The notes beneath the pieces were generated by a model that saw only the letters and a program-made list of their open reading frames with translations, was not told the origin of the DNA and made no database searches. A program made the position numbers and the translations under genes. Positions 9,160 through 23,822 of a stretch of 51,662 nt of DNA are shown piece after piece. The stretch lies in sequence record NC_049826.1, one strand, 5' to 3'. Numbering within the stretch: the first letter of the stretch is position 1; each line of letters begins with the position of its first letter. Source of the DNA: Escherichia phage aaroes.

Positions 9160-9428
9160 TTCTTGATCTCCTCAGCAATGAACTTCAATACCTTGCGCAA
9201 AAACACTTCGTTATTGATGGTGGCTGGCAATTCTTCTTTCACTTCTTGCGGCAGGTAAATATTGCCGTGCCAGGTTAAGCAATCGTAGTTGATGCGGTAA
9301 GAGCAAAGCCACTCGCAATCGTTATCCGCTTCCCAAATGCAAAGCTGCATGACGTCGCCAAAATCTTCAACAGTCAGTTCCAGGCCATGACGCTTAGCGA
9401 AGTTGAAAGTTGTTTTGCTGATGTTCAT
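9156..9428 (-). CDS. hypothetical protein (90 aa)
   Basis: ORF behind a cassette copy, RBS GGAGACGG. Confidence 0.45.
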   Translation of the reverse strand: MNISKTTFNFAKRHGLELTVEDFGDVMQLCIWEADNDCEWLCSYRINYDCLTWHGNIYLPQEVKEELPATINNEVFLRKVLKFIAEEIKK

Positions 9429-9513
9429 CTTACCGTCTCCTGATGGGTGTCTCGTTTCGATGTGTGTAATGTACCCGATCAGGCGGATTCAGTTTTAACA
9501 AAAAGTGCTATTT
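9429..9513 (-). promoter_or_regulatory. early promoter-leader cassette copy
   Basis: Minus strand: AAATAGCACTTTTTGTTAAAAC, TACATT, leader CACACATCGAAACGAGACACC, RBS. Confidence 0.5.
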
Positions 9514-9514
9514 C

Positions 9515-9703
9515 TCAACTGGCGATTATTCCACCTATTCCATTAATCAGGAATAACAGGAATAACTCATTCGAGATCACCTGGATTGTGAGATCTTGAG
9601 TTTGATCAATTTTAATCAGGTGATTAACTTTTTGTGTGGAGGGGATAGAGAAACGCGATCCTCTCGCATCCTTTCCGGCAATCCTGGCGCGCAACATGTT
9701 CAT
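9515..9703 (-). CDS. hypothetical protein (62 aa), possible first gene of the leftward early block
   Basis: ATG after GGATGG; sequence is repeat-rich; stop precedes the cassette core. Confidence 0.3.
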   Translation of the reverse strand: MNMLRARIAGKDARGSRFSIPSTQKVNHLIKIDQTQDLTIQVISNELFLLFLINGIGGIIAS

Positions 9704-9719
9704 TATGTTTCCATCCGTT

Positions 9720-10060
9720 CACGCAAATGAGCCTCCGCAGTTCTTCCACGTTTCATGCTGTCATGCACACAAAAGAAACAATGTAAAATCTATATAAATA
9801 CACATTAAATCAATAAGTTATTTATATATGTATTTATATTTGTTTCTTATTGTTCTTGTTGTGTGATGGTTATTGGTATATGTTGCGATTTTTGTGTTGG
9901 TGGATATTGATTGTTTATTGTTCGATTTGGTTGATGATTATGGTTGCTCATGGTTGCGTATGATTCTTGATGTATTTATGTATATATCCGCGAAAATTCG
10001 TGAACAGCCACACAGCCAAAAAACATGGTGAGGATTCTTTTTAAATCATGCACTTAACTG
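9720..10060. other. AT-rich, GT-iteron-rich non-coding control region at the strand switch
   Basis: About 340 bp without a credible ORF; repeated TGATT/TGGTT/TGTGTG units; shares ATAAATCAATAAGTTA and TGTT(C)TTATTGTT with 39480-39800. Confidence 0.5.
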
Positions 10061-10111
10061 TGAATTTTGTTTCCGCGCAATCTCCACACGTATAGCAAAC
10101 AATTAGAACGC

Positions 10112-10140
10112 TTGACATCGACACGGCGCGGTGGCAACAT
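10112..10140 (+). promoter_or_regulatory. candidate sigma70-type promoter for the rightward early block
   Basis: TTGACA, 17-nt spacer, CAACAT, about 40 nt upstream of the first plus-strand ORF. Confidence 0.35.
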
Positions 10141-10179
10141 TGCAACCACCAACAAACAGAGCAAATAGGAGTTACTCTT

Positions 10180-10641
10180 ATGACTATGACAAGTAAAGAA
10201 TTTTGCGATATGTTGCGAGTTAATGCAGCCTCACTAGCTAACGGTGATGTTAGCGAACTGCAAATCAAGGAGCTTGACTTGCAATGCAATATTGCGCCGG
10301 AAGACTTGAGGAAAATTAACGCCTCATACATCCGAACGATTATGAATCGAACGCCGGAGGTGAAAGCCGTTGGCGTGGTGAAAGTTGAACGCGTTCGAGG
10401 TGATGCGGATATTCCTGATTGCTATCGCGTAACCATTAACAAGAATCCAAAGCGCCGATTGCTGACAGATGAAGAATTGCCAAAACTTGAAAGTAAGTGG
10501 CGAGCAAAGTTTATTGCTCAACTGCTTAAAACACAGCCGCGAATCAGCGATCTGGAAGGTGAGCGCCTGGAAGGTGCAGCAATCGCACTTGAGCGAATGA
10601 ATGAAATGCTTAACGAGATGGTAAAGATGGAGGATGAATAA
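10180..10641 (+). CDS. hypothetical early protein (153 aa)
   Basis: AGGAG RBS then ATG 10180. Confidence 0.5.
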   Translation: MTMTSKEFCDMLRVNAASLANGDVSELQIKELDLQCNIAPEDLRKINASYIRTIMNRTPEVKAVGVVKVERVRGDADIPDCYRVTINKNPKRRLLTDEELPKLESKWRAKFIAQLLKTQPRISDLEGERLEGAAIALERMNEMLNEMVKMEDE

Positions 10642-10904
10642 TGGCTATGATGAAAATTCGCAAAGCAACAGATGATTTCATCCGCAGTAATGCGGAAAGC
10701 GGTCGCCTGTACGTTGCATTCGTGGAGCGCAAGAGAAAGCGCGGAAAGATTGTTGCGACTGAGCGGTTATTCAAGATGAAGCCGAGAACTGAATGCGAAT
10801 GCAAAAAGGATTGCGGTTTTTACTTCGGATGCCGTTGCAGCACGATAGAAAACGCGCGAACGCTCATAGATGAAGGAAAAGTATACTTCAATCCGGCAGA
10901 ATAG
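10641..10904 (+). CDS. hypothetical protein with C-terminal Cys cluster (87 aa)
   Basis: GGAGGA RBS; ECECKKDCGFYFGCRCS zinc-ribbon-like end; stop TAG inside the repeat core. Confidence 0.5.
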   Translation: MAMMKIRKATDDFIRSNAESGRLYVAFVERKRKRGKIVATERLFKMKPRTECECKKDCGFYFGCRCSTIENARTLIDEGKVYFNPAE

Positions 10905-10976
10905 CACTTTTTGTTAAAACGCCAGGTGCGAATCCTGGCATAATAGCCTCATCGAAACGAGATTGAGGAAAACAAA
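10901..10976 (+). promoter_or_regulatory. early promoter-leader cassette copy (canonical)
   Basis: ATAGCACTTTTTGTTAAAAC, hairpin GCCAGG-tgcgaat-CCTGGC, CATAAT, leader ATCGAAACGAG, GAGGAAAACAAA, ATG. Confidence 0.6.
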
Positions 10977-11162
10977 ATGGCACGTCGCATCACCAAAGAC
11001 CTTAAAGTCCTGAACAAAGAAAACGTAGTTAAAATCCTGGTTATCTGGGGATACAACGAAGAAGCAGCAAAGCAGAAGGTAGAGGCAGGTTATGACCTGG
11101 CTGTAAAAGCAATGCCAAACGACGACGCCAAAGGCATTGCAAACTATGTAGCGTTCTTTTAA
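10977..11162 (+). CDS. hypothetical protein (61 aa)
   Basis: ORF directly behind the cassette. Confidence 0.5.
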   Translation: MARRITKDLKVLNKENVVKILVIWGYNEEAAKQKVEAGYDLAVKAMPNDDAKGIANYVAFF

Positions 11163-11177
11163 TTAGCAGGTGAATAA

Positions 11178-11363
11178 ATGAAAACGAAATTAGTCCATAA
11201 ATCAGAAATCAAGATCGGCGATACTGTGATTCACAACGGCGAGCTTAGAACGGTTGGCAAAGAGTCAATAAGCCACGATGAATTTATGGGGATCTTGTTG
11301 TTCGGTGACTCTTATCGTCTTGGTTATAAAATGGTTGAGCTTGTGGAAGAGGTAAAATTCTAA
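11178..11363 (+). CDS. hypothetical protein (61 aa)
   Basis: ORF with RBS; stop TAA adjoins the repeat core. Confidence 0.5.
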   Translation: MKTKLVHKSEIKIGDTVIHNGELRTVGKESISHDEFMGILLFGDSYRLGYKMVELVEEVKF

Positions 11364-11462
11364 ATAGCACTTTTTGTTAAAACTCAAAAACGATAACCAG
11401 GCATAATAAATCACATAGGGCGGCACGGCGTCGCCCAGTAAAACCAATCAGGAGAAAGCACC
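11363..11462 (+). promoter_or_regulatory. early promoter-leader cassette copy
   Basis: AATAGCACTTTTTGTTAAAAC, CATAAT at 11402-11407, GC hairpin GGGCGgcacggcgtCGCCC in the leader, RBS GGAGAAAG. Confidence 0.55.
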
Positions 11463-12365
11463 ATGTTAAAACTTACTGACATTAAATTCCCGATCACCTT
11501 CGAATCTCGCGGCGTTGGTCATTTCATGTTTACCGACGAGAAGACATGCACTAAGTTTAACGAATACGGAAGTACAAACGCTTCAACAATGGAGATTGAA
11601 CACTTCATTGAAGCGCACAATAAACACTACAACTCACTCAGAGACTACGGCTATGCAATGCCAGGATACACCTGTTTTCACTACAAGCCATATAAAGGCC
11701 AGGTGTTGCCAGTGCGCTCGCCGGAACGCGCAGAGATTCATACGGTAGATATGAAAACCTGCGACTACAAAAAATTGTGGTGCTTAAGTGTGGACAATAT
11801 CAAGTATCCGATTGTTTTTAATTGTGGCGGTTCAACAATCAGGTTCACATCGCGCGACAATGGCGTTTATAGCGATGGTCAGAAATCAGAGTTGAAAGTT
11901 GATTTCTTTGTTAATGGTCACAACAAATTCAATCCGCACAATGAAAAAGATAAGGTGTACTACGTGGAAGGCATTACAAAACACTTGTTTGGAGAAACAC
12001 CATTCGGCGGCGGAAAGACGTCAATTCAAAAAATCATTGGCGAGGAGATCCACAAGGCAGCCGTTGAAATGAAAGCGCCTGGAGGCTGTAAGATTGATAA
12101 AAGCGACATTATCACCATTCGTTCAAAGATTGGCGGAGTTGAATACGAGGGCAAAATTGAAAAAATGCCGCTAGGCGCTTCAATCATCGGCATCAAAGAC
12201 GACAACGGCGATTGGCATGATGTTTCTTTCCCGATCAAGCGTATCGAAGTGCAAGACGACTTGATTTGCCTCCTGGCGCATCATGGCAGCTATAAGAACA
12301 ATCCGTTCTCCGCAGAGCTAAACATCAAGCGCGGAACGATTGTTAAGTGGAAGGCAAAAGTATAA
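11463..12365 (+). CDS. hypothetical protein (300 aa)
   Basis: Long ORF with RBS; no motif I could name. Confidence 0.5.
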   Translation: MLKLTDIKFPITFESRGVGHFMFTDEKTCTKFNEYGSTNASTMEIEHFIEAHNKHYNSLRDYGYAMPGYTCFHYKPYKGQVLPVRSPERAEIHTVDMKTCDYKKLWCLSVDNIKYPIVFNCGGSTIRFTSRDNGVYSDGQKSELKVDFFVNGHNKFNPHNEKDKVYYVEGITKHLFGETPFGGGKTSIQKIIGEEIHKAAVEMKAPGGCKIDKSDIITIRSKIGGVEYEGKIEKMPLGASIIGIKDDNGDWHDVSFPIKRIEVQDDLICLLAHHGSYKNNPFSAELNIKRGTIVKWKAKV

Positions 12366-12438
12366 ATAGCACGAATTGTTAAAACTCAAATGTGGGGCCA
12401 AGTATAATGGCCTCACTTTCAACGAAGGAGATAAAACG
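12365..12438 (+). promoter_or_regulatory. early promoter cassette copy (core variant ...CACGAATTGTTAAAAC)
   Basis: Core then inverted repeat GGGGCC...GGCC enclosing TATAAT, then AAGGAG RBS. Confidence 0.55.
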
Positions 12439-12669
12439 ATGTACATTAACAAGAAGATGAAATGCATTTCCGTTAACTATGGTTGCTCTGGCATGTTCAA
12501 GCCTGGCGAAATCTATATGGCGCAAAAACTGAAATCATCAACTGGATCTTTTTACGTGAGCAATAGTAAGGGGCATCGCATGTTCCTGAACGGCGGCGAA
12601 GGCACTAAGGTTATGGCACACGCTATGGTAATTGCTGAATTTGAGGAGGTGAAAGATGAAAGCAAATAA
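12439..12669 (+). CDS. hypothetical protein (76 aa)
   Basis: AAGGAG RBS before ATG 12439; the track ORF starts at a TTG inside the promoter. Confidence 0.45.
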   Translation: MYINKKMKCISVNYGCSGMFKPGEIYMAQKLKSSTGSFYVSNSKGHRMFLNGGEGTKVMAHAMVIAEFEEVKDESK

Positions 12670-12877
12670 GCGCGTCAAGCACAGGTTTATTGATAACCAC
12701 GGAGACGCGATCGATGTATACAAGTTCGGCGATCGCGTGTTTATTGACGGCACGTTTGAAGGTGGGCGCAGGCCGGATTTTAGGTCGATACTTACCGCTG
12801 ACCAGGTGCGCAAGCTGGCGGATAAGTTAAATGATCTGGCAGATGAAATCGAATACAAGCAAATCCATTTTAATTGA
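12656..12877 (+). CDS. hypothetical protein (73 aa)
   Basis: GAGGAGG RBS; overlaps the upstream gene. Confidence 0.5.
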   Translation: MKANKRVKHRFIDNHGDAIDVYKFGDRVFIDGTFEGGRRPDFRSILTADQVRKLADKLNDLADEIEYKQIHFN

Positions 12878-12888
12878 TAGGTTTGATA

Positions 12889-13509
12889 ATGAAAAAATAC
12901 GAATTTGAACTTTGGGGAAGCAAATACAATTTTTCCACGAGCAAGCCGATTGTTATCGTTGATCTGGACGGCACTTTATCCGATGGAACGCATCGCTTGC
13001 ACCTGCTGCCGACAGAAGATTTGCACCTTACAGAAAGCTGGTCTGAGTTCAATAAGGCGGCTGTTGGAGATTCGCCGATTAAGAGCACGGTTGCAGTGGT
13101 TAACGGATTGTGGATGTCAGGATTTGCCATCGTTATCCTGACAGGACGCAGCGATGAGGTCATGGCTGACACCTGCGACTGGTTAAATTATAACGGCATC
13201 AAGTACGACGCGTTAATCATGCGCCGCAAGGAAGATAACCGAAAAGACACGATCATCAAAGAGGAAGTCTTACGAGCTATCGGACTGGAAAACATTGTGT
13301 GCGCTTTTGATGATTCGCATAACGTGGTTAAGCACTTCCGCAGCCTGGGAATCACAACCTATCAGGTTACGGAATACGACAAGCCACATAATCACATCCA
13401 ATCGCACGGCGTGGATGAATTGAAGCCAAAAATCGAATGCGAAGGCGAGCACTGTTTTAGTGTGGTTGATGGTAAATGTTTGCGTTGCGGCGTGGAGGGT
13501 TTGAAATGA
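12889..13509 (+). CDS. HAD-family phosphatase resembling the T4 Pnkp 3'-phosphatase domain, with C-terminal Zn-ribbon
   Basis: HAD motif I VIVDLDGTLSDG, then VILTGR, RKDTIIKEEV and FDDSHNVV blocks in the order I recall for T4 Pnkp phosphatase; C-terminal CEGEHC...CLRCG. Confidence 0.65.
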   Translation: MKKYEFELWGSKYNFSTSKPIVIVDLDGTLSDGTHRLHLLPTEDLHLTESWSEFNKAAVGDSPIKSTVAVVNGLWMSGFAIVILTGRSDEVMADTCDWLNYNGIKYDALIMRRKEDNRKDTIIKEEVLRAIGLENIVCAFDDSHNVVKHFRSLGITTYQVTEYDKPHNHIQSHGVDELKPKIECEGEHCFSVVDGKCLRCGVEGLK

Positions 13510-13667
13510 CCTGGTTACTTTTAATCTTTGTCACAAGTTACAACTCCGCCGCTATTGAATCGCATGAGTTCCACAGCGAATCAAGATGTCAGGAAGCACG
13601 AAAGCAAGTTGTTCTCCACATGTCAGATAGTGGAAAAGATGTAACGGCGTTATGTGTCCGTAAATAG
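13506..13667 (+). CDS. hypothetical small protein with N-terminal hydrophobic segment (53 aa)
   Basis: GGAGGG RBS before ATG 13506, overlapping the upstream stop; stop adjoins the repeat core. Confidence 0.35.
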   Translation: MTWLLLIFVTSYNSAAIESHEFHSESRCQEARKQVVLHMSDSGKDVTALCVRK

Positions 13668-13738
13668 CACTTTTTGCAAAAACAGATTGTTGGGCTTGCG
13701 GTATAGTAAGCCCATCGACAACGAAAAAGGAAAACATC
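13663..13738 (+). promoter_or_regulatory. early promoter-leader cassette copy
   Basis: AATAGCACTTTTTGCAAAAAC, inverted repeat GGGCTT...AAGCCC enclosing TATAGT, leader CCCATCGACAACGAAAAAGGAAAACATC. Confidence 0.55.
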
Positions 13739-14038
13739 ATGTTAGTTCGTAATGCGATTTATAAATTCACCAACGAGATGGGAGTTCAACTTTACCACGT
13801 AAACCATCAAGGCCACACATCAATTGCGATGTATCGCGACGCTCGCGGGAAGTGCAAACCTTCTCTGTGTGGCAGAATTTCTCCTGCGTTCTTCATGTTC
13901 AAATGGTATGCAACAGAACAAAGCAACCATAACCATTGGAATAAAGTATTGGTTGCAGGAGGCCGAATTGTTGCCAGCCACGTAGTCGATCCGCGCAAAC
14001 TAACAAGTCGCCAGCTTCGCAAAATGGCGCGCAAGTGA
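13739..14038 (+). CDS. hypothetical protein (99 aa)
   Basis: ORF behind the cassette. Confidence 0.5.
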   Translation: MLVRNAIYKFTNEMGVQLYHVNHQGHTSIAMYRDARGKCKPSLCGRISPAFFMFKWYATEQSNHNHWNKVLVAGGRIVASHVVDPRKLTSRQLRKMARK

Positions 14039-14054
14039 TAGAGGAGAAGAACAA

Positions 14055-14240
14055 ATGATATATGCACTTGTATTTTTGGTGATTTTCTTTTATATTTCAG
14101 GACTATTCATCTTCCGCGCATTGGTTAAAGAGTGTGATTGCACGGATAAAGATCATCCTCTTGTTCTGATGTTCTGGTTTGTGTGGTTTTGGGTTGCGCT
14201 TTACCAGATTGTACGGGATGAAAGCGGCTTTAAGTGGTGA
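14055..14240 (+). CDS. hypothetical small membrane protein (61 aa)
   Basis: Two hydrophobic helices; RBS AGAGGAGAAG. Confidence 0.5.
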   Translation: MIYALVFLVIFFYISGLFIFRALVKECDCTDKDHPLVLMFWFVWFWVALYQIVRDESGFKW

Positions 14241-14295
14241 TTCTTGCTATAGCGCATTCATACAGTGCGCTATGTTGAGATAACAACATGAGATC

Positions 14296-14433
14296 ATGAA
14301 GATGCGAAACTTCGAAAAAATCGTATCCAAAAAGAAGCGATACAGCTACCACGAGCACCAAGAGATGAATCAACGCTGTCGCAATAAGCGCAAGCGCCCA
14401 GGTAAACATTCAAGCAGATATGGAGACAACTAA
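14296..14433 (+). CDS. hypothetical highly basic peptide (45 aa)
   Basis: K/R-rich ORF whose stop TAA sits just before the kinase ATG; weak RBS; below the track cutoff. Confidence 0.3.
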   Translation: MKMRNFEKIVSKKKRYSYHEHQEMNQRCRNKRKRPGKHSSRYGDN

Positions 14434-14434
14434 T

Positions 14435-15025
14435 ATGAAACGAGACATTATCATCCTTAACGGACCGCCTGGAGTTGGCAAGGATACGCTTGCGGCATAC
14501 TTAACGGGCCATCGTTACGCAGCGGTTAAAGCGTCGTTTAAACAGCCTATGTTTGATATTGCGTTTTCCATGCTTGGCGTTTACCGATATGACGAGTTCA
14601 TTGATCTGTATAACGACCGCGAGCAGAAAGAAAAGCCTCAAGCAATCTTGCAAGGCAAGTCGCCTCGCCAGTTCATGATCTGGATTAGCGAAGAAGTTAT
14701 GAAGTCAGCTTTTGGCGAGCAATATTTCGGAAATCGCATGGTTGAGCAAGTACACGAGATGTACAGAGATTTAGCTGTTGTAATTAGTGACGGCGGATTC
14801 CCTGAAGAAATCAAGCCGCTAGTTAAGGCAGGCCATGAAGTTCACATTTGCCGACTGCATCGCGAAGGCTTCACGTTTGATGGCGATTCACGAAACTATA
14901 TTGACCTGAACGGATACCATCACCGCGTAAAACATTACGACTTCACAATGATTGATGGCGATCCAGAAAAGACTGTTGACGAGATCATCAAAACGGTCCA
15001 GTGGAAACACATTAAGATCAAATAG
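14435..15025 (+). CDS. P-loop nucleotide kinase, T4 gp1 (dNMP kinase)-like
   Basis: P-loop ILNGPPGVGKDT then AVKASFKQP block, similar in order to T4 gp1 as I recall it; stop TAG in the repeat core. Confidence 0.6.
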   Translation: MKRDIIILNGPPGVGKDTLAAYLTGHRYAAVKASFKQPMFDIAFSMLGVYRYDEFIDLYNDREQKEKPQAILQGKSPRQFMIWISEEVMKSAFGEQYFGNRMVEQVHEMYRDLAVVISDGGFPEEIKPLVKAGHEVHICRLHREGFTFDGDSRNYIDLNGYHHRVKHYDFTMIDGDPEKTVDEIIKTVQWKHIKIK

Positions 15026-15095
15026 CACGAATTGCTAAAAGCGGGGCGCAATGCCTCGCTATAATGCAAACACCAATCAACGAGAGGACTTGAAC
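15021..15095 (+). promoter_or_regulatory. early promoter cassette copy (core AATAGCACGAATTGCTAAAA)
   Basis: Core, GC-rich imperfect repeat, TATAAT 15060-15065, leader AATCAACGAGAGGA. Confidence 0.55.
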
Positions 15096-15500
15096 ATGTT
15101 AGAGCTTAACTACATTCGCGTAGGCACAAAATTTCGCGTAACCTGGGTATATGATGAGCGATGCGGCATTCGCAAAGGTGAGATTGTAACGGCTTCCGAT
15201 CGTTATATCGGATCGTTAAAAGAGTTTAACCGACCACGCATCAAGAATGGCTATATCATTACTCGACGACTTGGCTTTGATCATTATTGCGTAGTGGCAA
15301 CTCAAGGCGTTTTGATTGAGCTTAAGCGAATCAGCGATCATCGCGGCTGCCATGTTAAGACAATGAAAATGCCATTTCAGCGAGCGCGATACGATGCGCG
15401 ACGTATGCGCCGACTTGCGCGAAATGCGATCAAGTTCAAAAAGCCTGGTAATGATTTTTACGTCATGTACAAGGGGATTGCGCGAAATGCTGGGAAATAA
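15096..15500 (+). CDS. hypothetical protein (134 aa)
   Basis: GAGAGGA RBS before ATG 15096. Confidence 0.5.
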   Translation: MLELNYIRVGTKFRVTWVYDERCGIRKGEIVTASDRYIGSLKEFNRPRIKNGYIITRRLGFDHYCVVATQGVLIELKRISDHRGCHVKTMKMPFQRARYDARRMRRLARNAIKFKKPGNDFYVMYKGIARNAGK

Positions 15501-15599
15501 CAACAACGCAACCAATCCTAAGCCACCGTTTGATTTTCATGAAATCATGATTGTGTTATTCTTGATTCTCTTATTTATTTATTCAGTGAGGGCCGCACT

Positions 15600-15863
15600 A
15601 TGGTTTTTAACGCACTAAAACGAATCTTTAAACCTGAATACAGGATTGTTGCTTGCACAGAATGCAATATTTATTACCTTCAACGCCGCCGCGTTATTGG
15701 TGGGGGTTGGGAATACCTGACGGATGATGCTTTCGGCTTTTGGGCTATGGAGTTCAATAGCTACAGCGAAGCGCGAGAATACGCTAAAAAGTTGCACAAG
15801 TTCAGACCTTACAAACTTCGTTTGCTGGTTGTCAAAAAGTGCGACGTATGGGAGCACGAATGA
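15600..15863 (+). CDS. hypothetical protein (87 aa)
   Basis: ORF; a possible 43-aa membrane peptide (15487-15618) upstream is not called. Confidence 0.45.
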   Translation: MVFNALKRIFKPEYRIVACTECNIYYLQRRRVIGGGWEYLTDDAFGFWAMEFNSYSEAREYAKKLHKFRPYKLRLLVVKKCDVWEHE

Positions 15864-16039
15864 AAAAGTACGCAATAATCACATTAGCACTAATTATCGG
15901 ATGCGCACTTGCTTATAGTTGCGATGGCATTCTTGAGTCAATAGGCGGAATGATCATCTTTGCGGCTGGTTGTTATGCTGGGTATCACGACGGGTTTACA
16001 GCAGGCAAGCGCCACATCCTGACCGGAAAAACAAAATAA
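15860..16039 (+). CDS. hypothetical small membrane protein (59 aa)
   Basis: GGAG RBS, hydrophobic N-terminus (AIITLALIIGCALAY). Confidence 0.45.
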   Translation: MKKYAIITLALIIGCALAYSCDGILESIGGMIIFAAGCYAGYHDGFTAGKRHILTGKTK

Positions 16040-16081
16040 TGTTAACCGCGCCGCTTAGGTGGCGCCAAAAGGAGGAAACAA

Positions 16082-16369
16082 ATGGCTAAAAGCTATCATA
16101 AAATGTTGATTAACGCATTCGAAAAGGCAGCGCTTGAGCGTGGTTGGAATGACTCATTTCACACAGCAAACTGCATCAGACGTTACGGATTCAAGAATTG
16201 CCGCTCATGGGCGCGTGAAATGGCTTCATGGTATGATTTCGATGCGCATTACCTTGATATGGATTGCGCGCTGGTTGAAATGATTGAGCAGGCAGCGCTA
16301 GAGGATCGACCATTGACGCAATCTGATTTTGATGATTTTGTTCGCGATGAAATCTATTACATGAGCTAA
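16082..16369 (+). CDS. hypothetical protein (95 aa)
   Basis: AGGAGGAAACAAATG RBS; stop TAA-TAG runs into the repeat core. Confidence 0.5.
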   Translation: MAKSYHKMLINAFEKAALERGWNDSFHTANCIRRYGFKNCRSWAREMASWYDFDAHYLDMDCALVEMIEQAALEDRPLTQSDFDDFVRDEIYYMS

Positions 16370-16444
16370 TAGCACTTTTTGTTAAAACTTCCGCGAGGGC
16401 ATTTGTTAAAGTGTCCTCATTGAAGCGAAACAGAGGAAAGCACA
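16368..16444 (+). promoter_or_regulatory. early promoter-leader cassette copy
   Basis: AATAGCACTTTTTGTTAAAAC, inverted repeat GAGGGCA...TGTCCTC, leader ATTGAAGCGAAACAGAGGAAAG. Confidence 0.5.
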
Positions 16445-16699
16445 ATGTCAACCTTAAAAGATAAAAATTTTATTGGTCATGTTAGAGTTAAGTTAATCAA
16501 TGTTGACTACAGACCAGATCCAGAATCGCCAACATTGCGCGAGTGGGCCGGATTCGAAAACGGAAAGGAAATGGTTGTCGAGCTTTACAAAGATGGTGAG
16601 ATGTGGGCGATGGCTGGCATTAATCACAACGGCGAATTTGGCGAAGTAAAAGAAACAGATTGGTTTAGTCTTACAGAGAATGAAGCGGAGATTATCTAA
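16445..16699 (+). CDS. hypothetical protein (84 aa)
   Basis: ORF behind the cassette. Confidence 0.5.
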   Translation: MSTLKDKNFIGHVRVKLINVDYRPDPESPTLREWAGFENGKEMVVELYKDGEMWAMAGINHNGEFGEVKETDWFSLTENEAEII

Positions 16700-16932
16700 T
16701 GATCACGATTAACCTTTCAGAGAAGCAAGCATATCAAGTGATGAGCTACATTTCTGGATTTGGTATGGAAGGCGCTATGGGTGAAGTTGCGGATCAGATT
16801 TGCCGTCAACTTACACCAGCACCAACGCGAGCGGCAGAAACTGCCGCATGGCGTAACGAGGCAGGATACATTCAGAAGGCTATTGAAGACTGGAAGCGCA
16901 AAAACGAGACGGCGGAGGATGCTGGATTATGA
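16699..16932 (+). CDS. hypothetical protein (77 aa)
   Basis: Start overlaps upstream stop. Confidence 0.45.
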   Translation: MITINLSEKQAYQVMSYISGFGMEGAMGEVADQICRQLTPAPTRAAETAAWRNEAGYIQKAIEDWKRKNETAEDAGL

Positions 16933-17243
16933 TTTACATTCACTACTACCAGATCGGGACAAACGAGAACAAGAAAGAGCATCGTTTCATTCATGATGAT
17001 TTGGACAAGGCAAAGGCCCAGCAACAGGTTTTAGGCGGTGTCATTCAGGCTTTTGAGCCAGTGGAAGACATAGAGCACCGAGAGCATTTGAAAGAGATTG
17101 TTATTGATGAAATTTCATCACTAATCGACGACATGACAAATCACGGTCCTGGTTCTCCGTGGGAAGAAGCCGGATCGACGGAGTGTGATTGCGCTAAAGT
17201 TGCAACGCTTAACAACTTTCGTGAGTTGCTCGACGATTTTTAA
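16929..17243 (+). CDS. hypothetical protein (104 aa)
   Basis: Start overlaps upstream stop. Confidence 0.45.
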   Translation: MIYIHYYQIGTNENKKEHRFIHDDLDKAKAQQQVLGGVIQAFEPVEDIEHREHLKEIVIDEISSLIDDMTNHGPGSPWEEAGSTECDCAKVATLNNFRELLDDF

Positions 17244-17252
17244 TTAAAATTG

Positions 17253-17298
17253 AATGCCTCATACAGCGAACAGGACGCATTTTGACGAGGCATTTTTT
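17253..17298 (+). terminator. intrinsic terminator
   Basis: Stem AATGCCTC / GAGGCATT with a long loop, then a 6-T run. Confidence 0.55.
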
Positions 17299-17313
17299 AG
17301 GTAAGGTGATTCA

Positions 17314-17442
17314 ATGGATAACTACATAAAACCGTCGCAGTGGTGCGCACAGAAGCAAGAGGAAGCATTAGAACGCGGCGACACTGAAACGGCAATGCAC
17401 TATTTCGAAATGTACAACTTGTGGAAGGGTAGAGGTCTGTAA
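17314..17442 (+). CDS. hypothetical small protein (42 aa)
   Basis: AAGGTG RBS; stop overlaps the next ATG; below the track cutoff. Confidence 0.3.
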   Translation: MDNYIKPSQWCAQKQEEALERGDTETAMHYFEMYNLWKGRGL

Positions 17443-17672
17443 TGTTTGGAATGAACGAGGCACAATTCAACGCTGCAAAACGCCAGGCTAAGAAGTGCGG
17501 CGAGGCAATGAAGGCGGATGTTGAAAAGCGCGGAAAGTATGTTGATGAAGTTATGAAGGGCATTATTGCCGAACATTATCAGCCAGTTGCGCCAATGCTG
17601 ACAATTACCCAATTCATCTGGTTGTGTGGTTATCTTCGTGGGCGATGGGGAAACGCATTTGACCGCGAATGA
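17442..17672 (+). CDS. hypothetical protein (76 aa)
   Basis: ORF coupled to the upstream small ORF. Confidence 0.45.
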   Translation: MFGMNEAQFNAAKRQAKKCGEAMKADVEKRGKYVDEVMKGIIAEHYQPVAPMLTITQFIWLCGYLRGRWGNAFDRE

Positions 17673-17701
17673 TTGACAACAATTTCCTGATTGGTTAACA
17701 T
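17673..17701 (+). promoter_or_regulatory. sigma70-type promoter (TTGACA-17-TAACAT)
   Basis: TTGACA 17673-17678, exact 17-nt spacer, TAACAT 17696-17701. Confidence 0.5.
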
Positions 17702-17764
17702 CTTCTGTGTTTACATAAGAGCGGCGTTAGTGCCGAACGGGTGGCGCGGTTGCCACGCAACAAC

Positions 17765-17806
17765 GGCGATATGCAGGTTTTTACCGTAAGACGTATCGCC
17801 TTTTTT
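17765..17806 (+). terminator. leader terminator/attenuator immediately upstream of an RBS
   Basis: Stem GGCGATA / TATCGCC followed by 6 T, ending 12 nt before ATG 17819. Confidence 0.55.
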
Positions 17807-17818
17807 ATAGGTGGATAT

Positions 17819-18052
17819 ATGGAAAAGTACAAATTAACTTTCATGTTTAATAGTATGGTGATGAATCCCTTAAATGGTTACGCTTGCAATAGCTTTTCTG
17901 TTACCGTGGATGAGGATGGAATTGATGATGATGGTAAATTTATTCAAATAGGTGATTACCTTTATCCTATTCACAATATCAATTGCATCAAACGCGAGAT
18001 CGTAAAAGATGAAGTACAAAGTAAAGCTGACGATCAGGCGAATGGGGCGTAA
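17819..18052 (+). CDS. hypothetical protein (77 aa)
   Basis: AGGTGGA RBS before internal ATG; the track ORF extension covers the leader terminator. Confidence 0.45.
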   Translation: MEKYKLTFMFNSMVMNPLNGYACNSFSVTVDEDGIDDDGKFIQIGDYLYPIHNINCIKREIVKDEVQSKADDQANGA

Positions 18053-18190
18053 TTGCCAGTCATGTAGGCAGGATTTTGAATGCGAGATTTCAGCGCAAAA
18101 TCCTGTTGACGCGATTCAATGTGCTAAAGTTATATCAGGTGCAGATCCAGAGACGCATCAATTTTCAATCAATTTTGTAAGGGAAGTATT

Positions 18191-18424
18191 ATGTTGAACT
18201 TAATTTCTGCTTTTGTTATTGGTTTTGTTCTTGCTGTAATTATTCTGTTTGTCGCATCGGAAAAGATTTGCAAATTTCTTGCTAAGAACGGGAAGTTTGC
18301 AAGCGTGACATGGAATAACAAGATGCAGCGATGGGATGTTCGCGGTCACTATCTGACGATTGGTAGCAAAATCCATCAGCACCTGAAGAATCAAGAAGAT
18401 GAAAAAGTAAAATACAAGTATTGA
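18191..18424 (+). CDS. hypothetical membrane protein (77 aa)
   Basis: N-terminal TM helix (LISAFVIGFVLAVIILFVA). Confidence 0.45.
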   Translation: MLNLISAFVIGFVLAVIILFVASEKICKFLAKNGKFASVTWNNKMQRWDVRGHYLTIGSKIHQHLKNQEDEKVKYKY

Positions 18425-18431
18425 CCAACTA

Positions 18432-18453
18432 CCCGCCAAATGGCGGGTTTTTT
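18432..18453 (+). terminator. intrinsic terminator ending the early block
   Basis: CCCGCC-aaat-GGCGGG followed by a 6-T run. Confidence 0.8.
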
Positions 18454-18503
18454 ATTGCCTGCAATTTGTCTATAATGAGGCTTTGTTATAAGGAGGGCGC
18501 ATT

Positions 18504-19025
18504 ATGGCTAAAAACGTTGAGCCAGCAGTAAAGGCTTGCAATTTTAAAAAACTATATAATAAGCAATATGGCGATATTGCAAAAATGACAAAGGCGCACA
18601 AGTACACGCCGGAACAGGTGTTTGATCTGGCTGTGCGTTACTTTACGTGGGCCGAGGAAAACCATATACAGGCTGCGGAAACTGCATCCTTTCAGGGTGA
18701 TGTATACGAAAGCAAGATTCACAAGCCGCGCGTGTTCACCTTAAATGGATTCCGCTTATTCGCTGGGCTTTCTGCTTCCGTTCTTGAAAAATGGCGACGC
18801 GAGCCAGGATTCAGCGATGTTATGGACTTTATCGACGGCGTTGTTTACGAGCAAAAATTCCAGCTTGCCGCAAACAATATTGTTAACGCCGGATTCATTG
18901 GTAAAGAGATCGGCATTGAAAAGCCAGCAACCGTAACCATTGAGAATAACACAAGCGCAAGCGTTGACGCTGTAACGGCGGAGGAAGTCAAAGAGGCGGT
19001 AATTGACATTCTGGAGAAGATATAA
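18504..19025 (+). CDS. terS: terminase small subunit
   Basis: 173-aa ORF immediately upstream of and overlapping TerL; strong RBS GGAGGG; call rests on position and size. Confidence 0.6.
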   Translation: MAKNVEPAVKACNFKKLYNKQYGDIAKMTKAHKYTPEQVFDLAVRYFTWAEENHIQAAETASFQGDVYESKIHKPRVFTLNGFRLFAGLSASVLEKWRREPGFSDVMDFIDGVVYEQKFQLAANNIVNAGFIGKEIGIEKPATVTIENNTSASVDAVTAEEVKEAVIDILEKI

Positions 19026-22709: not shown

Positions 22710-23822
22710 ATGAAGGCAAAACAAAGATTTGATAGCGTCAAGGTTAAAGCGCATTTTGATGATAATGGCTTTTTAGTGGATCGCCCAATTGTGGCGCGAA
22801 TTGGCTTACAGGAGTATCACACACCGTATGGAATCAGACGAGAGTTCAGACCAGCGTCCGAGGTGTTCAAAGCTGATTCCCTTGCCACGTTCGCAGGCAA
22901 GCCGATAACTATCGGTCACGTAACGGTAACACCGGACAATGCGGATCAGGTTGTTGTTGGTTCATGCGCTGGTGCTGGTGTTCCAAATGGTGTTGGCGTT
23001 GAAGTTCCGTTAAGCATTTACTCAAAGCGAGCAATTGAGAGCGCAAAAAAGAAAGACACAGCCGAAATTTCAGTTGGTTACACATCCATTGATATTGATA
23101 AGCCAGGCTGGGGCAACAATAAAACTGGTGATTACTTATTTGAGGAAGACATTAAAGAAGACTGGAAGCCTGATTCTCCTGATTGGGTCAAATTTGACGC
23201 CATTCAGACGAATATCCGTGTCAACCACATTGCGCTTGTCTTTCGTGGTCGTGCTGGCATTGCCAAATTAAATCTTGATAGTGAACAAGATTTTCCGTAT
23301 AGTGACGAGATTCTAAATGACAAAGGAGATGAGGAAATGACAGTAAAAATTAAACTTGATGGCGCGGTAGAATTTGATGTTCCAAAGGCCGTTGCTGATC
23401 ATATTGAGGTGTTAAAGGCAGATGCAAAAGCTGCAACCGAAAAAGCTGATGGCCTTGAGGCCGAGCGCGACGCCCTGAAAACTAAAGTCGATGGCATTCC
23501 GGCGCAGATTGCAGAAGCTGTTAAGAAGGCAAAGACTGACGCAGAAGAACACGCCAAGCTAGTTGCAGATGCAACTGAAATTGGCATCAAGTGTGACGGC
23601 TTGGACGCTAAAGCGATCAAAGTTGCTTACGTCAAAGAAGTCACTGGCGCTGATATTTCAGAAAAAGCCGACGCATATATTGAAACAGCTTTTGACCTTG
23701 CGAAGCAGTCTGATAAAATGGCGGCGCAGCGTAAATATGTTAAGGGCGATTCTTTCGAATCTGGCAAGAGTGAAAAAACCGACTCCCTTGATCCGACTGC
23801 GCGTTTGAAAAAACTTAAATAA
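22710..23822 (+). CDS. scaffolding-like protein (possible protease-scaffold fusion)
   Basis: C-terminal half is a charged Ala/Lys/Glu coiled coil; sits between morphogenesis and capsid genes. Confidence 0.45.
   Translation: MKAKQRFDSVKVKAHFDDNGFLVDRPIVARIGLQEYHTPYGIRREFRPASEVFKADSLATFAGKPITIGHVTVTPDNADQVVVGSCAGAGVPNGVGVEVPLSIYSKRAIESAKKKDTAEISVGYTSIDIDKPGWGNNKTGDYLFEEDIKEDWKPDSPDWVKFDAIQTNIRVNHIALVFRGRAGIAKLNLDSEQDFPYSDEILNDKGDEEMTVKIKLDGAVEFDVPKAVADHIEVLKADAKAATEKADGLEAERDALKTKVDGIPAQIAEAVKKAKTDAEEHAKLVADATEIGIKCDGLDAKAIKVAYVKEVTGADISEKADAYIETAFDLAKQSDKMAAQRKYVKGDSFESGKSEKTDSLDPTARLKKLK

Follow-up and report, generated by a model that had tools for sequence, protein, structure and literature searches.

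The genes at positions 12889-13509 and 14435-15025 of Escherichia phage aaroes (Drexlerviridae, Hanrivervirus) encode a stand-alone phosphatase of the Pnkp type and a P-loop kinase of the gp1/Dnk family, a pair whose role most likely lies, to judge from sequence and gene context, in DNA and nucleotide metabolism rather than in tRNA repair. The window analyzed is the whole genome of the phage (51,662 nucleotides). An earlier note had drawn attention to these two ORFs, and both are present at these coordinates and had been correctly read. The features to which the text refers are as follows.

566-1699, + strand: "DNA repair exonuclease" with HTH and metallophosphoesterase parts (phrog_704, 3.9e-151).
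12889-13509, + strand: stand-alone Pnkp-type HAD (DxDxT) phosphatase, 206 aa (PF25109, phrog_415, PDB matches, catalytic residues).
13423-13506, + strand: C-terminal Cys/His tail of the phosphatase, 27-28 residues (C184, H188, C189, C197, and C200; alignment of tail variants).
13506-13667, 13739-14038, 14055-14240, and 14296-14433, + strand: four spacer ORFs from the ORF list, within 13506-14433 between phosphatase and kinase.
14435-15025, + strand: gp1/Dnk-family P-loop kinase, predicted to act on (deoxy)nucleoside monophosphates, 196 aa (PHROG 139, hhalign, structure model).
18431-18448, + strand: intrinsic-terminator-like hairpin, 7 pairs, of which 6 are G-C, with a T-run (terminator scan).

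The phosphatase and kinase genes belong to a run of small ORFs on the + strand that ends at the strong terminator-like hairpin at 18431-18448, and terS starts just downstream, at 18504. Early expression of the two genes is plausible; a promoter scan of positions 9300-18600 gave no word on timing, because sigma-70-like sites were fewer than in shuffled controls. The small ORFs that separate or flank the two genes matched either nothing or PHROGs without an assigned function, which for the spacer ORFs are 5579, 8382, and 9755. Many other phages have no such spacer between phosphatase and kinase.

The ATG at 12889 agrees with the MKKYEF start of homologues of the phosphatase, and its stop codon (13507-13509) shares ATGA with the ATG of the next ORF. 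The protein matched Pfam family PF25109 (HAD_PNKP) with a score of 78.5 bits (E = 7.2e-22; curated gathering score, 27.6 bits) over profile positions 3-140 of 143, and phrog_415 at 2.9e-65. Matches to PDB sequences were confined to the phosphatase halves of Capnocytophaga gingivalis Pnkp1 (4xrp, residues 196-308; the best match, E = 2.3e-7) and of T4 Pnkp (1ltq, residues 202-298; 4e-4), and the match to phrog_505, which is of the T4 PseT type, covered only profile positions 158-292 of 295. By these spans, an N-terminal Pnk-type P-loop 5′-kinase domain is absent from the 206-aa protein. The database name "polynucleotide kinase" is thus a misnomer, since only the phosphatase half is present.

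With T4 Pnkp (PseT; 1ltq, PF25109), the phosphatase has in common the DxDxT acylphosphatase fold, the nucleophile, the general acid, the Ser/Thr-Gly-Arg of motif II, RKD..K, and the DD metal ligands. Motif I (DLDGT) provides D25, D27, and T29, the two aspartates being nearly invariant among relatives; in T4 Pnkp, D165 is the nucleophile and D167 the general acid (PMC3592404). The later blocks are TGR (T85, R87), RKD..K (D120, K124), and DD (D141, D142), and a phmmer alignment to 1ltq, together with an alignment to a T4-like Pnkp, placed these six residues opposite T4 S211, R213, D254, K258, D277, and D278. R36 sits 11 residues past the nucleophile, like T4 R176, a correspondence of spacing only; R36, by this spacing, and R87, by alignment, are the counterparts of T4 R176 and R213, the Pnkp-specific arginines. 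The Pfam, PDB, and residue alignments bear out the original observation of a HAD motif I followed by further blocks in the order of T4 Pnkp, and they indicate that the protein keeps the full catalytic apparatus of the T4 Pnkp 3′-phosphatase. It is ~29% identical to the Pnkp phosphatase domains of T4-like phages and differs from T4 Pnkp in lacking the N-terminal Pnk domain and an RNA ligase partner, in a longer insert past motif I and a variable Cys/His tail, and in a genetic context of DNA and nucleotide metabolism instead of rnlA.

A secondary Pfam match, to the class B acid phosphatases (PF03767; 1.2e-9, 38 bits), also lay above its cut-off of 27, and there were weak matches to NT5C. Both bear on an alternative in which the phosphatase, in the manner of class B acid phosphatases and NT5C, is a mononucleotidase of 5′- or 3′-(deoxy)nucleotides that tunes or edits the nucleotide pool with the kinase, removing unwanted rNMPs, dUMP, or 3′-NMPs, for example, rather than acting on polynucleotide ends. 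Such a role would be in keeping with the fusion to a dATP/dGTP diphosphohydrolase domain and the coupling to nrdB described below, and with the size of the family: more than 8,000 representative relatives were found, and the best-scoring 150 are mostly stand-alone proteins of 140-170 aa. We nevertheless consider this role distinctly unlikely. The HAD_PNKP score is far above the nucleotidase scores, the Pnkp-specific arginines are kept, and a 5′-dNMPase joined to a dNMP kinase would amount to a futile cycle.

The start codon of the kinase gene is preceded by GGAG 9 nt 5′ of the ATG, and homologues are also 196 aa long. The P-loop reads GKDT. Both the aaroes kinase (8.9e-51) and T4 gp1 (1.8e-65) matched phrog_139, "dNMP kinase," whereas a T4-like Pnkp did not, and the fold of the structure model is nearer to T4 dNMP kinase than to polynucleotide kinases. 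The resemblance to T4 dNMP kinase pointed out in the earlier note was therefore confirmed by phrog_139 and by the fold. Identity to T4 gp1 in the structural alignment is only 17%, and hhalign of the kinase family gave probabilities of 80% for gp1 and 95% for T5 Dnk while covering the N-terminal 67-73 columns only. Since PDB searches with the single kinase sequence and with the family profile (hmmsearch) returned P-loop matches only, the profile not reaching 1dek, the link to gp1 rests on PHROGs, hhalign, and the structure model. At 196 aa, the kinase is shorter than gp1 (241 aa; 1dek) and T5 Dnk (250 aa), which are the two characterized phage dNMP kinases of its family; its C-terminal half is not alignable to theirs by profile and, unlike them, it is genetically coupled to a phosphatase. 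On these grounds we assign the kinase to the gp1/Dnk dNMP-kinase family, not to the Pnk family, and predict activity on dNMPs.

Conserved order, adjacency, and occasional fusion argue that the phosphatase and the kinase function as a pair, and the pairing first noticed in aaroes holds up. Among 80 IMG/VR loci with a kinase homologue, 66 have the phosphatase gene upstream of the kinase gene and on the same strand, and this order is kept across 18 of 23 kinase clusters (70% identity). The gap between the genes ranges from 3 to 2093 bp over the 66 loci and is ≤150 bp in 34. In many phages the two genes directly adjoin each other or are translationally coupled; in phiEa100, Klebsiella phage GP-4, and Bubbly, the stop codon of one gene overlaps the start codon of the next. 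Both genes are close together in 537 of 1609 phage records. Rarely, the two are fused: metagenomic proteins P0375 and P0379 each consist of the phosphatase followed by the kinase, as in the gene pair. Orthologous genes, annotated as "PNK" and dNMP kinase, occur in the same order in T1, TLS, KanT1, and Klebsiella Webervirus phages, where they frequently follow the gene for the "DNA repair exonuclease." Aaroes differs from these phages by an exonuclease gene located elsewhere (566-1699), by ~0.9 kb of small ORFs between the two genes, and by the extra Cys/His tail. Its exonuclease shares 41-63% identity with those of the phiEa100 and Klebsiella phage Bubbly cassettes and lies ~11 kb from the pair, whereas in other phage families the gene is directly upstream of it. 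A phrog_704 exonuclease, which is Mre11-like, directly precedes the pair in 22 of the 80 IMG/VR loci and a DNA ligase follows it in 5; in phiEa100, the cassette runs exonuclease, phosphatase, kinase, DNA ligase.

The same cassette could belong to DNA end healing, with the pair acting as a non-orthologous analogue of Pnkp. The phosphatase would remove 3′-phosphates, and the gp1-fold kinase would phosphorylate 5′-OH DNA ends, not free dNMPs; the Mre11-like nuclease would trim ends, and the nick would be sealed by host LigA in T1-like phages or by the adjacent phage ligase in T7-like phages. Consistent with this, the exonuclease-phosphatase-kinase-DNA ligase order is found in phiEa100 and in 5 IMG/VR loci, the phosphatase-kinase fusions mirror the dual activities of Pnkp, and the exonuclease has a weak, sub-threshold match to PdeM, a ligase-associated DNA-damage endonuclease (E = 3.7e-4, 19.9 bits, cut-off 150). 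Moreover, one protein (P0501) carries a genuine Pnk-type kinase fused behind the same type of phosphatase, indicating that the kinase "slot" can hold a polynucleotide kinase. We regard end healing as unlikely, as both nearest characterized relatives of the kinase are dNMP kinases, and adjacency of kinase and ligase is expected in T7-like genomes regardless, because replication genes are clustered there; in T7 itself, ligase 1.3 is encoded near nucleotide kinase 1.7. It is likewise improbable that the gp1-fold kinase is a polynucleotide 5′-kinase recruited from the nucleotide-kinase fold, forming with the phosphatase a split, non-orthologous Pnkp that, helped by the Mre11-like nuclease and a DNA ligase, heals 3′-phosphate/5′-OH breaks left by host nucleases in the DNA or RNA of the phage. 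If true, split Pnkp would be a common, unrecognized break-repair or counter-defense module of phages.

The earlier note had raised a further possibility, namely, that the pair, as a split T4 Pnkp, provides an anti-defense measure by healing tRNA or other RNA cut by anticodon nucleases such as PrrC or RloC, with a ligase encoded, for example, by the 300-aa ORF at 11463-12365. Such a system would profit from a phosphatase that keeps all of the T4 Pnkp residues for removing 2′,3′-cyclic, 3′-, and 2′-phosphates from RNA, from the functional link between the two genes, and from their location among early-region small ORFs without assigned function. However, the kinase is of the gp1/Dnk type and not of the Pnk type, and no RNA ligase motif or family was found in the genome or in its annotated relatives. 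The 12 KxDG matches in six-frame ORFs include the portal, a tail-tip protein, a structural ORF (22710-23822), the primase, and short ORFs, and none is in a ligase-like ORF in any frame of the whole genome. No RNA ligase of the KxDG type or RtcB was found alongside the phosphatase in the genome, and no ligase appears among the annotations of the relatives KarlJaspers and phiE31-2. For the 300-aa ORF, Pfam gave nothing above noise, matches to PDB, NCBIfam, and PADLOC were lacking, and KxDG is absent; the AF2 model was poor (pLDDT 50, pTM 0.33), and Foldseek of this model against BFVD retrieved uncharacterized proteins of T1-like phages only, so that neither a ligase nor any other recognizable fold supports it as the missing partner. 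When phosphatase, kinase, 300-aa ORF, and exonuclease were compared with PADLOC-DB, none matched a model significantly, and the sole hit was a P-loop match (E = 0.0037). The host ligase RtcB requires a 3′-phosphate, which the phosphatase would destroy. Pnkp1, the best PDB match, joins kinase and phosphatase in one polypeptide and operates together with an RNA ligase and Hen1 (bacterial Pnkp1-Rnl5-Hen1 RNA repair), partners that aaroes lacks. Finally, the T4-like phage Phi1 carries, on top of its genuine pseT and rnlA, an extra stand-alone phosphatase of the aaroes type (41% identical), whose gene lies in the td-nrdA-nrdB cluster in translational coupling with nrdB. Repair of anticodon-nuclease-cut tRNA by a split Pnkp thus appears highly improbable.

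The evidence is in better agreement with the fallback offered in the same note, according to which the pair acts on nucleotides rather than RNA, as the exonuclease, DNA ligase, nrdB, and diphosphohydrolase contexts suggest. We give an even chance to the view that the two proteins are coupled DNA/nucleotide-metabolism enzymes of a mobile phage cassette composed of an Mre11-like nuclease, a Pnkp-type phosphatase, and a gp1-type dNMP kinase. Breakdown of host DNA and dNTP supply are pointed to because related phosphatases adjoin nrdB, as in Phi1, or form one protein with a dATP/dGTP diphosphohydrolase domain (PF18909, in P0377). Both T1 and TLS break down the genome of the host and recycle its nucleotides, and neither has a DNA polymerase gene (PMC11447400). 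T1-like phages, having no DNA polymerase of their own, would draw on the degraded host chromosome to make new DNA. In infected cells, 5′-dNMPs set free from host DNA would be turned into dNDPs by the kinase and then into dNTPs by host Ndk. The phosphatase may strip 3′-phosphates off DNA ends, oligonucleotides, or 3′-phosphorylated mononucleotides; left in place, these phosphates would hinder exonucleolytic breakdown, priming, or re-use.

What the phosphatase acts on is the least secured step of this salvage account. The Pnkp phosphatase domain is also active on deoxynucleoside 3′-monophosphates (PMC6714547), and 3′-dTMP served as a substrate of the T4 Pnkp phosphatase (PMC3592404). Against salvage, the need for a 3′-phosphatase in recycling dNMPs is not evident, and the neighboring nuclease and ligase suit DNA end repair equally well. 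The low identity of the kinase to gp1, the N-terminal coverage by hhalign, and the failure of the profile to reach 1dek also count against it, as does the Pnk-type kinase of P0501 in the same fusion order. Functional analogues of a salvage pair are the T7 gp1.7 nucleotide kinase and the T5 Dmp 5′-deoxynucleotidase, which channel breakdown products of host DNA into or out of the dNTP pool; their folds and families are unrelated to those of the aaroes proteins, and no homology is implied. Both dmp and dnk are annotated in T5.

The pair is already annotated in published papers on T1-like genomes, in which a role in nucleotide supply has also been guessed, so that the finding is correct but ordinary. 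A search of the literature for experiments on the T1-like PNK and dNMP kinase, or for a link between dNMP kinase and escape from defense, returned genome-annotation papers only. In a paper on retron Eco2, PNK figured only as a reagent. What is sharpened is the annotation: the T1-like "polynucleotide kinase" comprises just the phosphatase, the kinase paired with it is of the gp1 type, and the two are most likely not a tRNA-repair kit. The pair is very common, occurring in hundreds of phage isolates of the Drexlerviridae and Autographiviridae, with thousands of metagenomic relatives. Knowledge of its substrates would explain how polymerase-less phages like T1 recycle the host chromosome or, less likely, bring to light another, non-orthologous way of healing nucleic-acid ends.

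The phosphatase had also been credited with an added Zn-ribbon. The Cys/His tail is real and is probably a zinc knuckle, but it is not constant: it is a variable add-on carried by only some relatives. A 57-aa alternative tail found in other relatives has no homologue in the aaroes genome. Relatives without a tail are 179 aa long, those with the Cys/His tail are 204-211 aa long and retain the C..H..CxxC pattern, those with the unrelated 57-aa tail are 236-237 aa long, and proteins with both tails reach 264 aa.

Two genes of Escherichia phage aaroes code for a stand-alone phosphatase and a kinase:

12889-13509, + strand: phosphatase, 206 residues
14435-15025, + strand: kinase, 196 residues

The context of start and stop codons and the starts and lengths of homologues indicated that both open reading frames (ORFs) are real. 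The phosphatase start agrees with the MKKYEF start of homologues, and its stop codon shares ATGA with the start of the next ORF; the start of the kinase is the second ATG, 9 nt downstream of a GGAG, and 196 residues is also the length of its homologues. The phosphatase matched the Pfam family HAD_PNKP (78.5 bits for a cut-off of 27.6; E = 7.2e-22) and phrog_415 (2.9e-65), and the solved structures matched were phosphatase halves only, from Pnkp1 (4xrp) and T4 Pnkp (1ltq, 5uj0). The chemistry of T4 Pnkp involves D165 as the nucleophile and D167 as the acid/base, plus S211, K258, and D278 (PMC3592404). These residues aligned with D25, D27, T85, K124, and D142 of the aaroes protein, respectively, and R213, D254, and D277 aligned with R87, D120, and D141, confirming the assignment to Pnkp-type phosphatases made in the earlier note. 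Residue R176 of T4 Pnkp is essential, and R36 of the aaroes phosphatase, as read from the sequence, shows the same spacing, 11 residues past the nucleophile. The Pfam, PHROG, and PDB matches revealed no kinase domain in this protein, and its database name, polynucleotide kinase, is therefore a misnomer.

The phosphatase had also been credited with an added Zn-ribbon. A Cys/His tail of 27-28 residues does exist (13423-13506; C184, H188, C189, C197, and C200), but it is optional, since close relatives have 179 residues without the tail versus 204-211 residues with it, the latter conserving C..H..CxxC. Other relatives carry an unrelated tail of 57 residues (236-237 residues in total), no homologue of which was found within the window, or both tails in tandem (264 residues). 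On sequence comparison, the C terminus is a swap site, occupied by nothing, the knuckle, the 57-residue domain, or both (homologues P0122, P0124, P0128, and P0138). Relatives of the phosphatase numbered 8095 at E ≤0.001 among 1.84 billion representative proteins, and the best-scoring 150 of them were overwhelmingly stand-alone proteins of 140-170 residues.

For the kinase, Pfam returned a P-loop match only, below threshold. The protein matched phrog_139, deoxynucleoside monophosphate kinase (8.9e-51), as did T4 gp1 (1.8e-65, with a sequence 100% identical to T4 gene 1), in agreement with the earlier description of a P-loop kinase resembling the T4 dNMP kinase; a T4-like Pnkp matched phrog_505 and phrog_2071, not phrog_139. 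An AlphaFold2 model based on 46 homologues was confident (pLDDT 91.9, pTM 0.85). Comparison of the kinase profile with T5 Dnk and T4 gp1 gave probabilities of 95% and 80%, respectively, for alignments of the N-terminal 67-73 columns only, which contain the GKDT P-loop, SFKxP, and DRxxKE, and just the 26-column P-loop aligned with Pnkp. The gp1-family assignment is sound; the substrate range we only infer, because the relation to gp1 is remote (17% identity; 1dek was not reached by a profile search of the PDB with the kinase family).

Coupling of the two genes was quantified in 80 IMG/VR loci that a search with the kinase family had yielded. The phosphatase gene was upstream of the kinase gene on the same strand in 66 loci, and no other arrangement of the two was seen. 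Of 23 clusters formed by the kinases at 70% identity, 18 are represented among these 66 loci. The intergenic gap ranged from 3 to 2093 bp (≤150 bp in 34 loci). Stop and start codons of the pair overlap in Klebsiella phages Bubbly (Webervirus) and GP-4 (Autographiviridae, Melnykvirinae) and in Erwinia phage phiEa100 (Autographiviridae, Molineuxvirinae), whose phosphatases and kinases are 48-67% and 40-46% identical to those of aaroes. Among the few longer relatives of the phosphatase, the metagenomic proteins P0375 (403 residues) and P0379 (461 residues) keep this order, with an N-terminal phosphatase (phrog_415, PF25109) and a C-terminal kinase (phrog_139). With P0375 as the query, 537 of 1609 phage records had both genes near enough to cover at least 80% of the fusion. 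Together, the conserved order, the overlaps, and the fusions show that the two genes are partners, as had been proposed. In Hanrivervirus, ~0.9 kb and four small ORFs separate them; in view of the tight pairs, fusions, and co-location elsewhere, this arrangement looks like a loosened form of an ancestral tight pair.

13506-14433, + strand: spacer coding for a 53-residue product with a hydrophobic N terminus, a 99-residue protein, a 61-residue hydrophobic Cys-containing protein (a relative is annotated as FeoB-associated Cys-rich membrane protein), and a very basic 45-residue peptide

The earlier note put the pair forward as a candidate split Pnkp acting in tRNA repair against anticodon nucleases, with a possible missing partner:

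11463-12365, + strand: 300-residue ORF

This role is highly improbable for several reasons. Although 12 matches to KxDG were found in six-frame ORFs of the window (including the portal, the tail-tip protein, the structural ORF at 22710-23822, the primase, and short ORFs), none was in a ligase-like ORF, as the note had reported for the vicinity of the pair, and annotated relatives (KarlJaspers, phiE31-2) lack a ligase. The kinase is not of the Pnk type, and no genomic context supports such a role. The phosphatase, the kinase, the 300-residue ORF, and the exonuclease matched none of the PADLOC defence-system models. The tRNA-repair role is also contradicted by T4-like phage Phi1, which carries genuine pseT and rnlA genes and, in addition, a stand-alone phosphatase of the aaroes type, ORF229 (L087:4998-5474). 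ORF229 is translationally coupled to nrdB, overlapping its stop codon in the td-nrdA-nrdB cluster, and is 41% identical to the aaroes phosphatase; the corresponding figure for phosphatase domains of Pnkp from T4-like phages is ~29%.

Nothing favoured the 300-residue ORF as a ligase: it matched nothing in Pfam, PDB, NCBIfam, or PADLOC, and its model was poor (pLDDT 50). Two N-terminal repeats, each of four strands plus a helix (residues 1-60 and 107-176), reached moderate confidence, and the remainder was not modelled. It falls in a PHROG without assigned function and is similar only to uncharacterised proteins of T1-like phages, in some of which its pieces form separate ORFs of 93-204 residues. 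One GenBank relative is labelled tail fiber protein, with no visible support.

A 375-residue phrog_704 DNA repair exonuclease, which has an HTH at the N terminus and a weak metallophosphoesterase signature, was encoded directly upstream of the pair in 22 of the 80 loci. It is the first gene of the cassette in T7-like and Webervirus phages. Unlike in these cassettes, the aaroes gene is separate from the pair and, like that of KarlJaspers, precedes the lysis genes:

566-1699, + strand: phrog_704 exonuclease gene (3.9e-151; 41-63% identity to the cassette versions); other copies at L004:5824-6951 and L006:2345-3475

This exonuclease is a candidate for the function that degrades host DNA in T1. 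A sub-threshold match to the ligase-associated DNA-damage endonuclease PdeM was also observed. An ATP-dependent DNA ligase follows the pair in 5/80 loci, and in 8/80 loci, which lack the phosphatase, the kinase is preceded by a different phosphoesterase and followed by the ligase. The nuclease and ligase neighbours favour healing of DNA ends by a non-orthologous split Pnkp, as does the metagenomic protein P0501, in which the phosphatase is fused to a Pnk-type AAA_33 kinase in an order reversed relative to T4 Pnkp; the kinase of the pair, however, belongs to the gp1/Dnk family of dNMP kinases, and we consider this explanation unlikely. In P0377, also metagenomic, the phosphatase is fused to a dATP/dGTP diphosphohydrolase domain (PF18909).

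We favour a role in nucleotide and DNA metabolism over RNA repair or anti-defence; the earlier note had offered action on nucleotides as a fallback. In T1 and TLS infections, the host chromosome is broken down and its nucleotides are re-used, and both phages rely on the host polymerase (PMC11447400), and the Pnkp phosphatase domain accepts 3'-dNMPs besides polynucleotide ends (PMC3592404, PMC6714547). We infer, with chances that we judge about even, that the kinase would increase the conversion of 5'-dNMP to dNDP, like the characterised enzymes of T4 and T5, and that the phosphatase would remove 3'-phosphates from DNA ends, oligonucleotides, or 3'-phosphorylated mononucleotides during host-DNA breakdown. 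The weak point of this salvage reading is why salvage needs a 3'-phosphatase; that the enzyme is a mononucleotidase is distinctly unlikely.

Both genes belong to known families, and the finding is correct and already known at the annotation level, since the phosphatase or the pair is annotated in three papers. The Sfin-1 genome paper (PMC6714547) equates the protein with the C-terminal part of T4 Pnkp, its phosphatase domain. The TLS paper lists a polynucleotide kinase and a dNMP kinase under nucleotide metabolism and DNA replication, in a section opening with host-DNA re-use (PMC11447400). [quoted passage not shown] No assay of either subfamily was found in the literature searched. Our analysis adds the placement of the kinase in its family by structure, the quantified coupling, the fusion proteins, and negative evidence against RNA repair.

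The window is a complete T1-like siphovirus genome and, in common with other T1-like phages, codes for a primase, helicases, recombination proteins, and Dam and Dcm methylases; neither a DNA polymerase nor a ligase is annotated. Across 11400-15600, its identity is 95.6% to Escherichia phage vB_EcoS_G29-2 and Shigella phage SFP17, and the BASEL phage KarlJaspers (Drexlerviridae, Tempevirinae, Hanrivervirus) shares 89%. Between 20 and 39 GenBank records labelled as Campylobacter jejuni phages (e.g., MG065665.1, Campylobacter phage A131) are Hanrivervirus-like, with a kinase 92% identical to that of aaroes; the assigned host seems doubtful, perhaps through contamination or mislabelling. Between a block of small + strand ORFs spanning ~8 kb (10180-18400) and terS at 18504 lies a strong hairpin resembling an intrinsic terminator:

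18431-18448, + strand: hairpin of 7 pairs, 6 of them G-C, with a T-run
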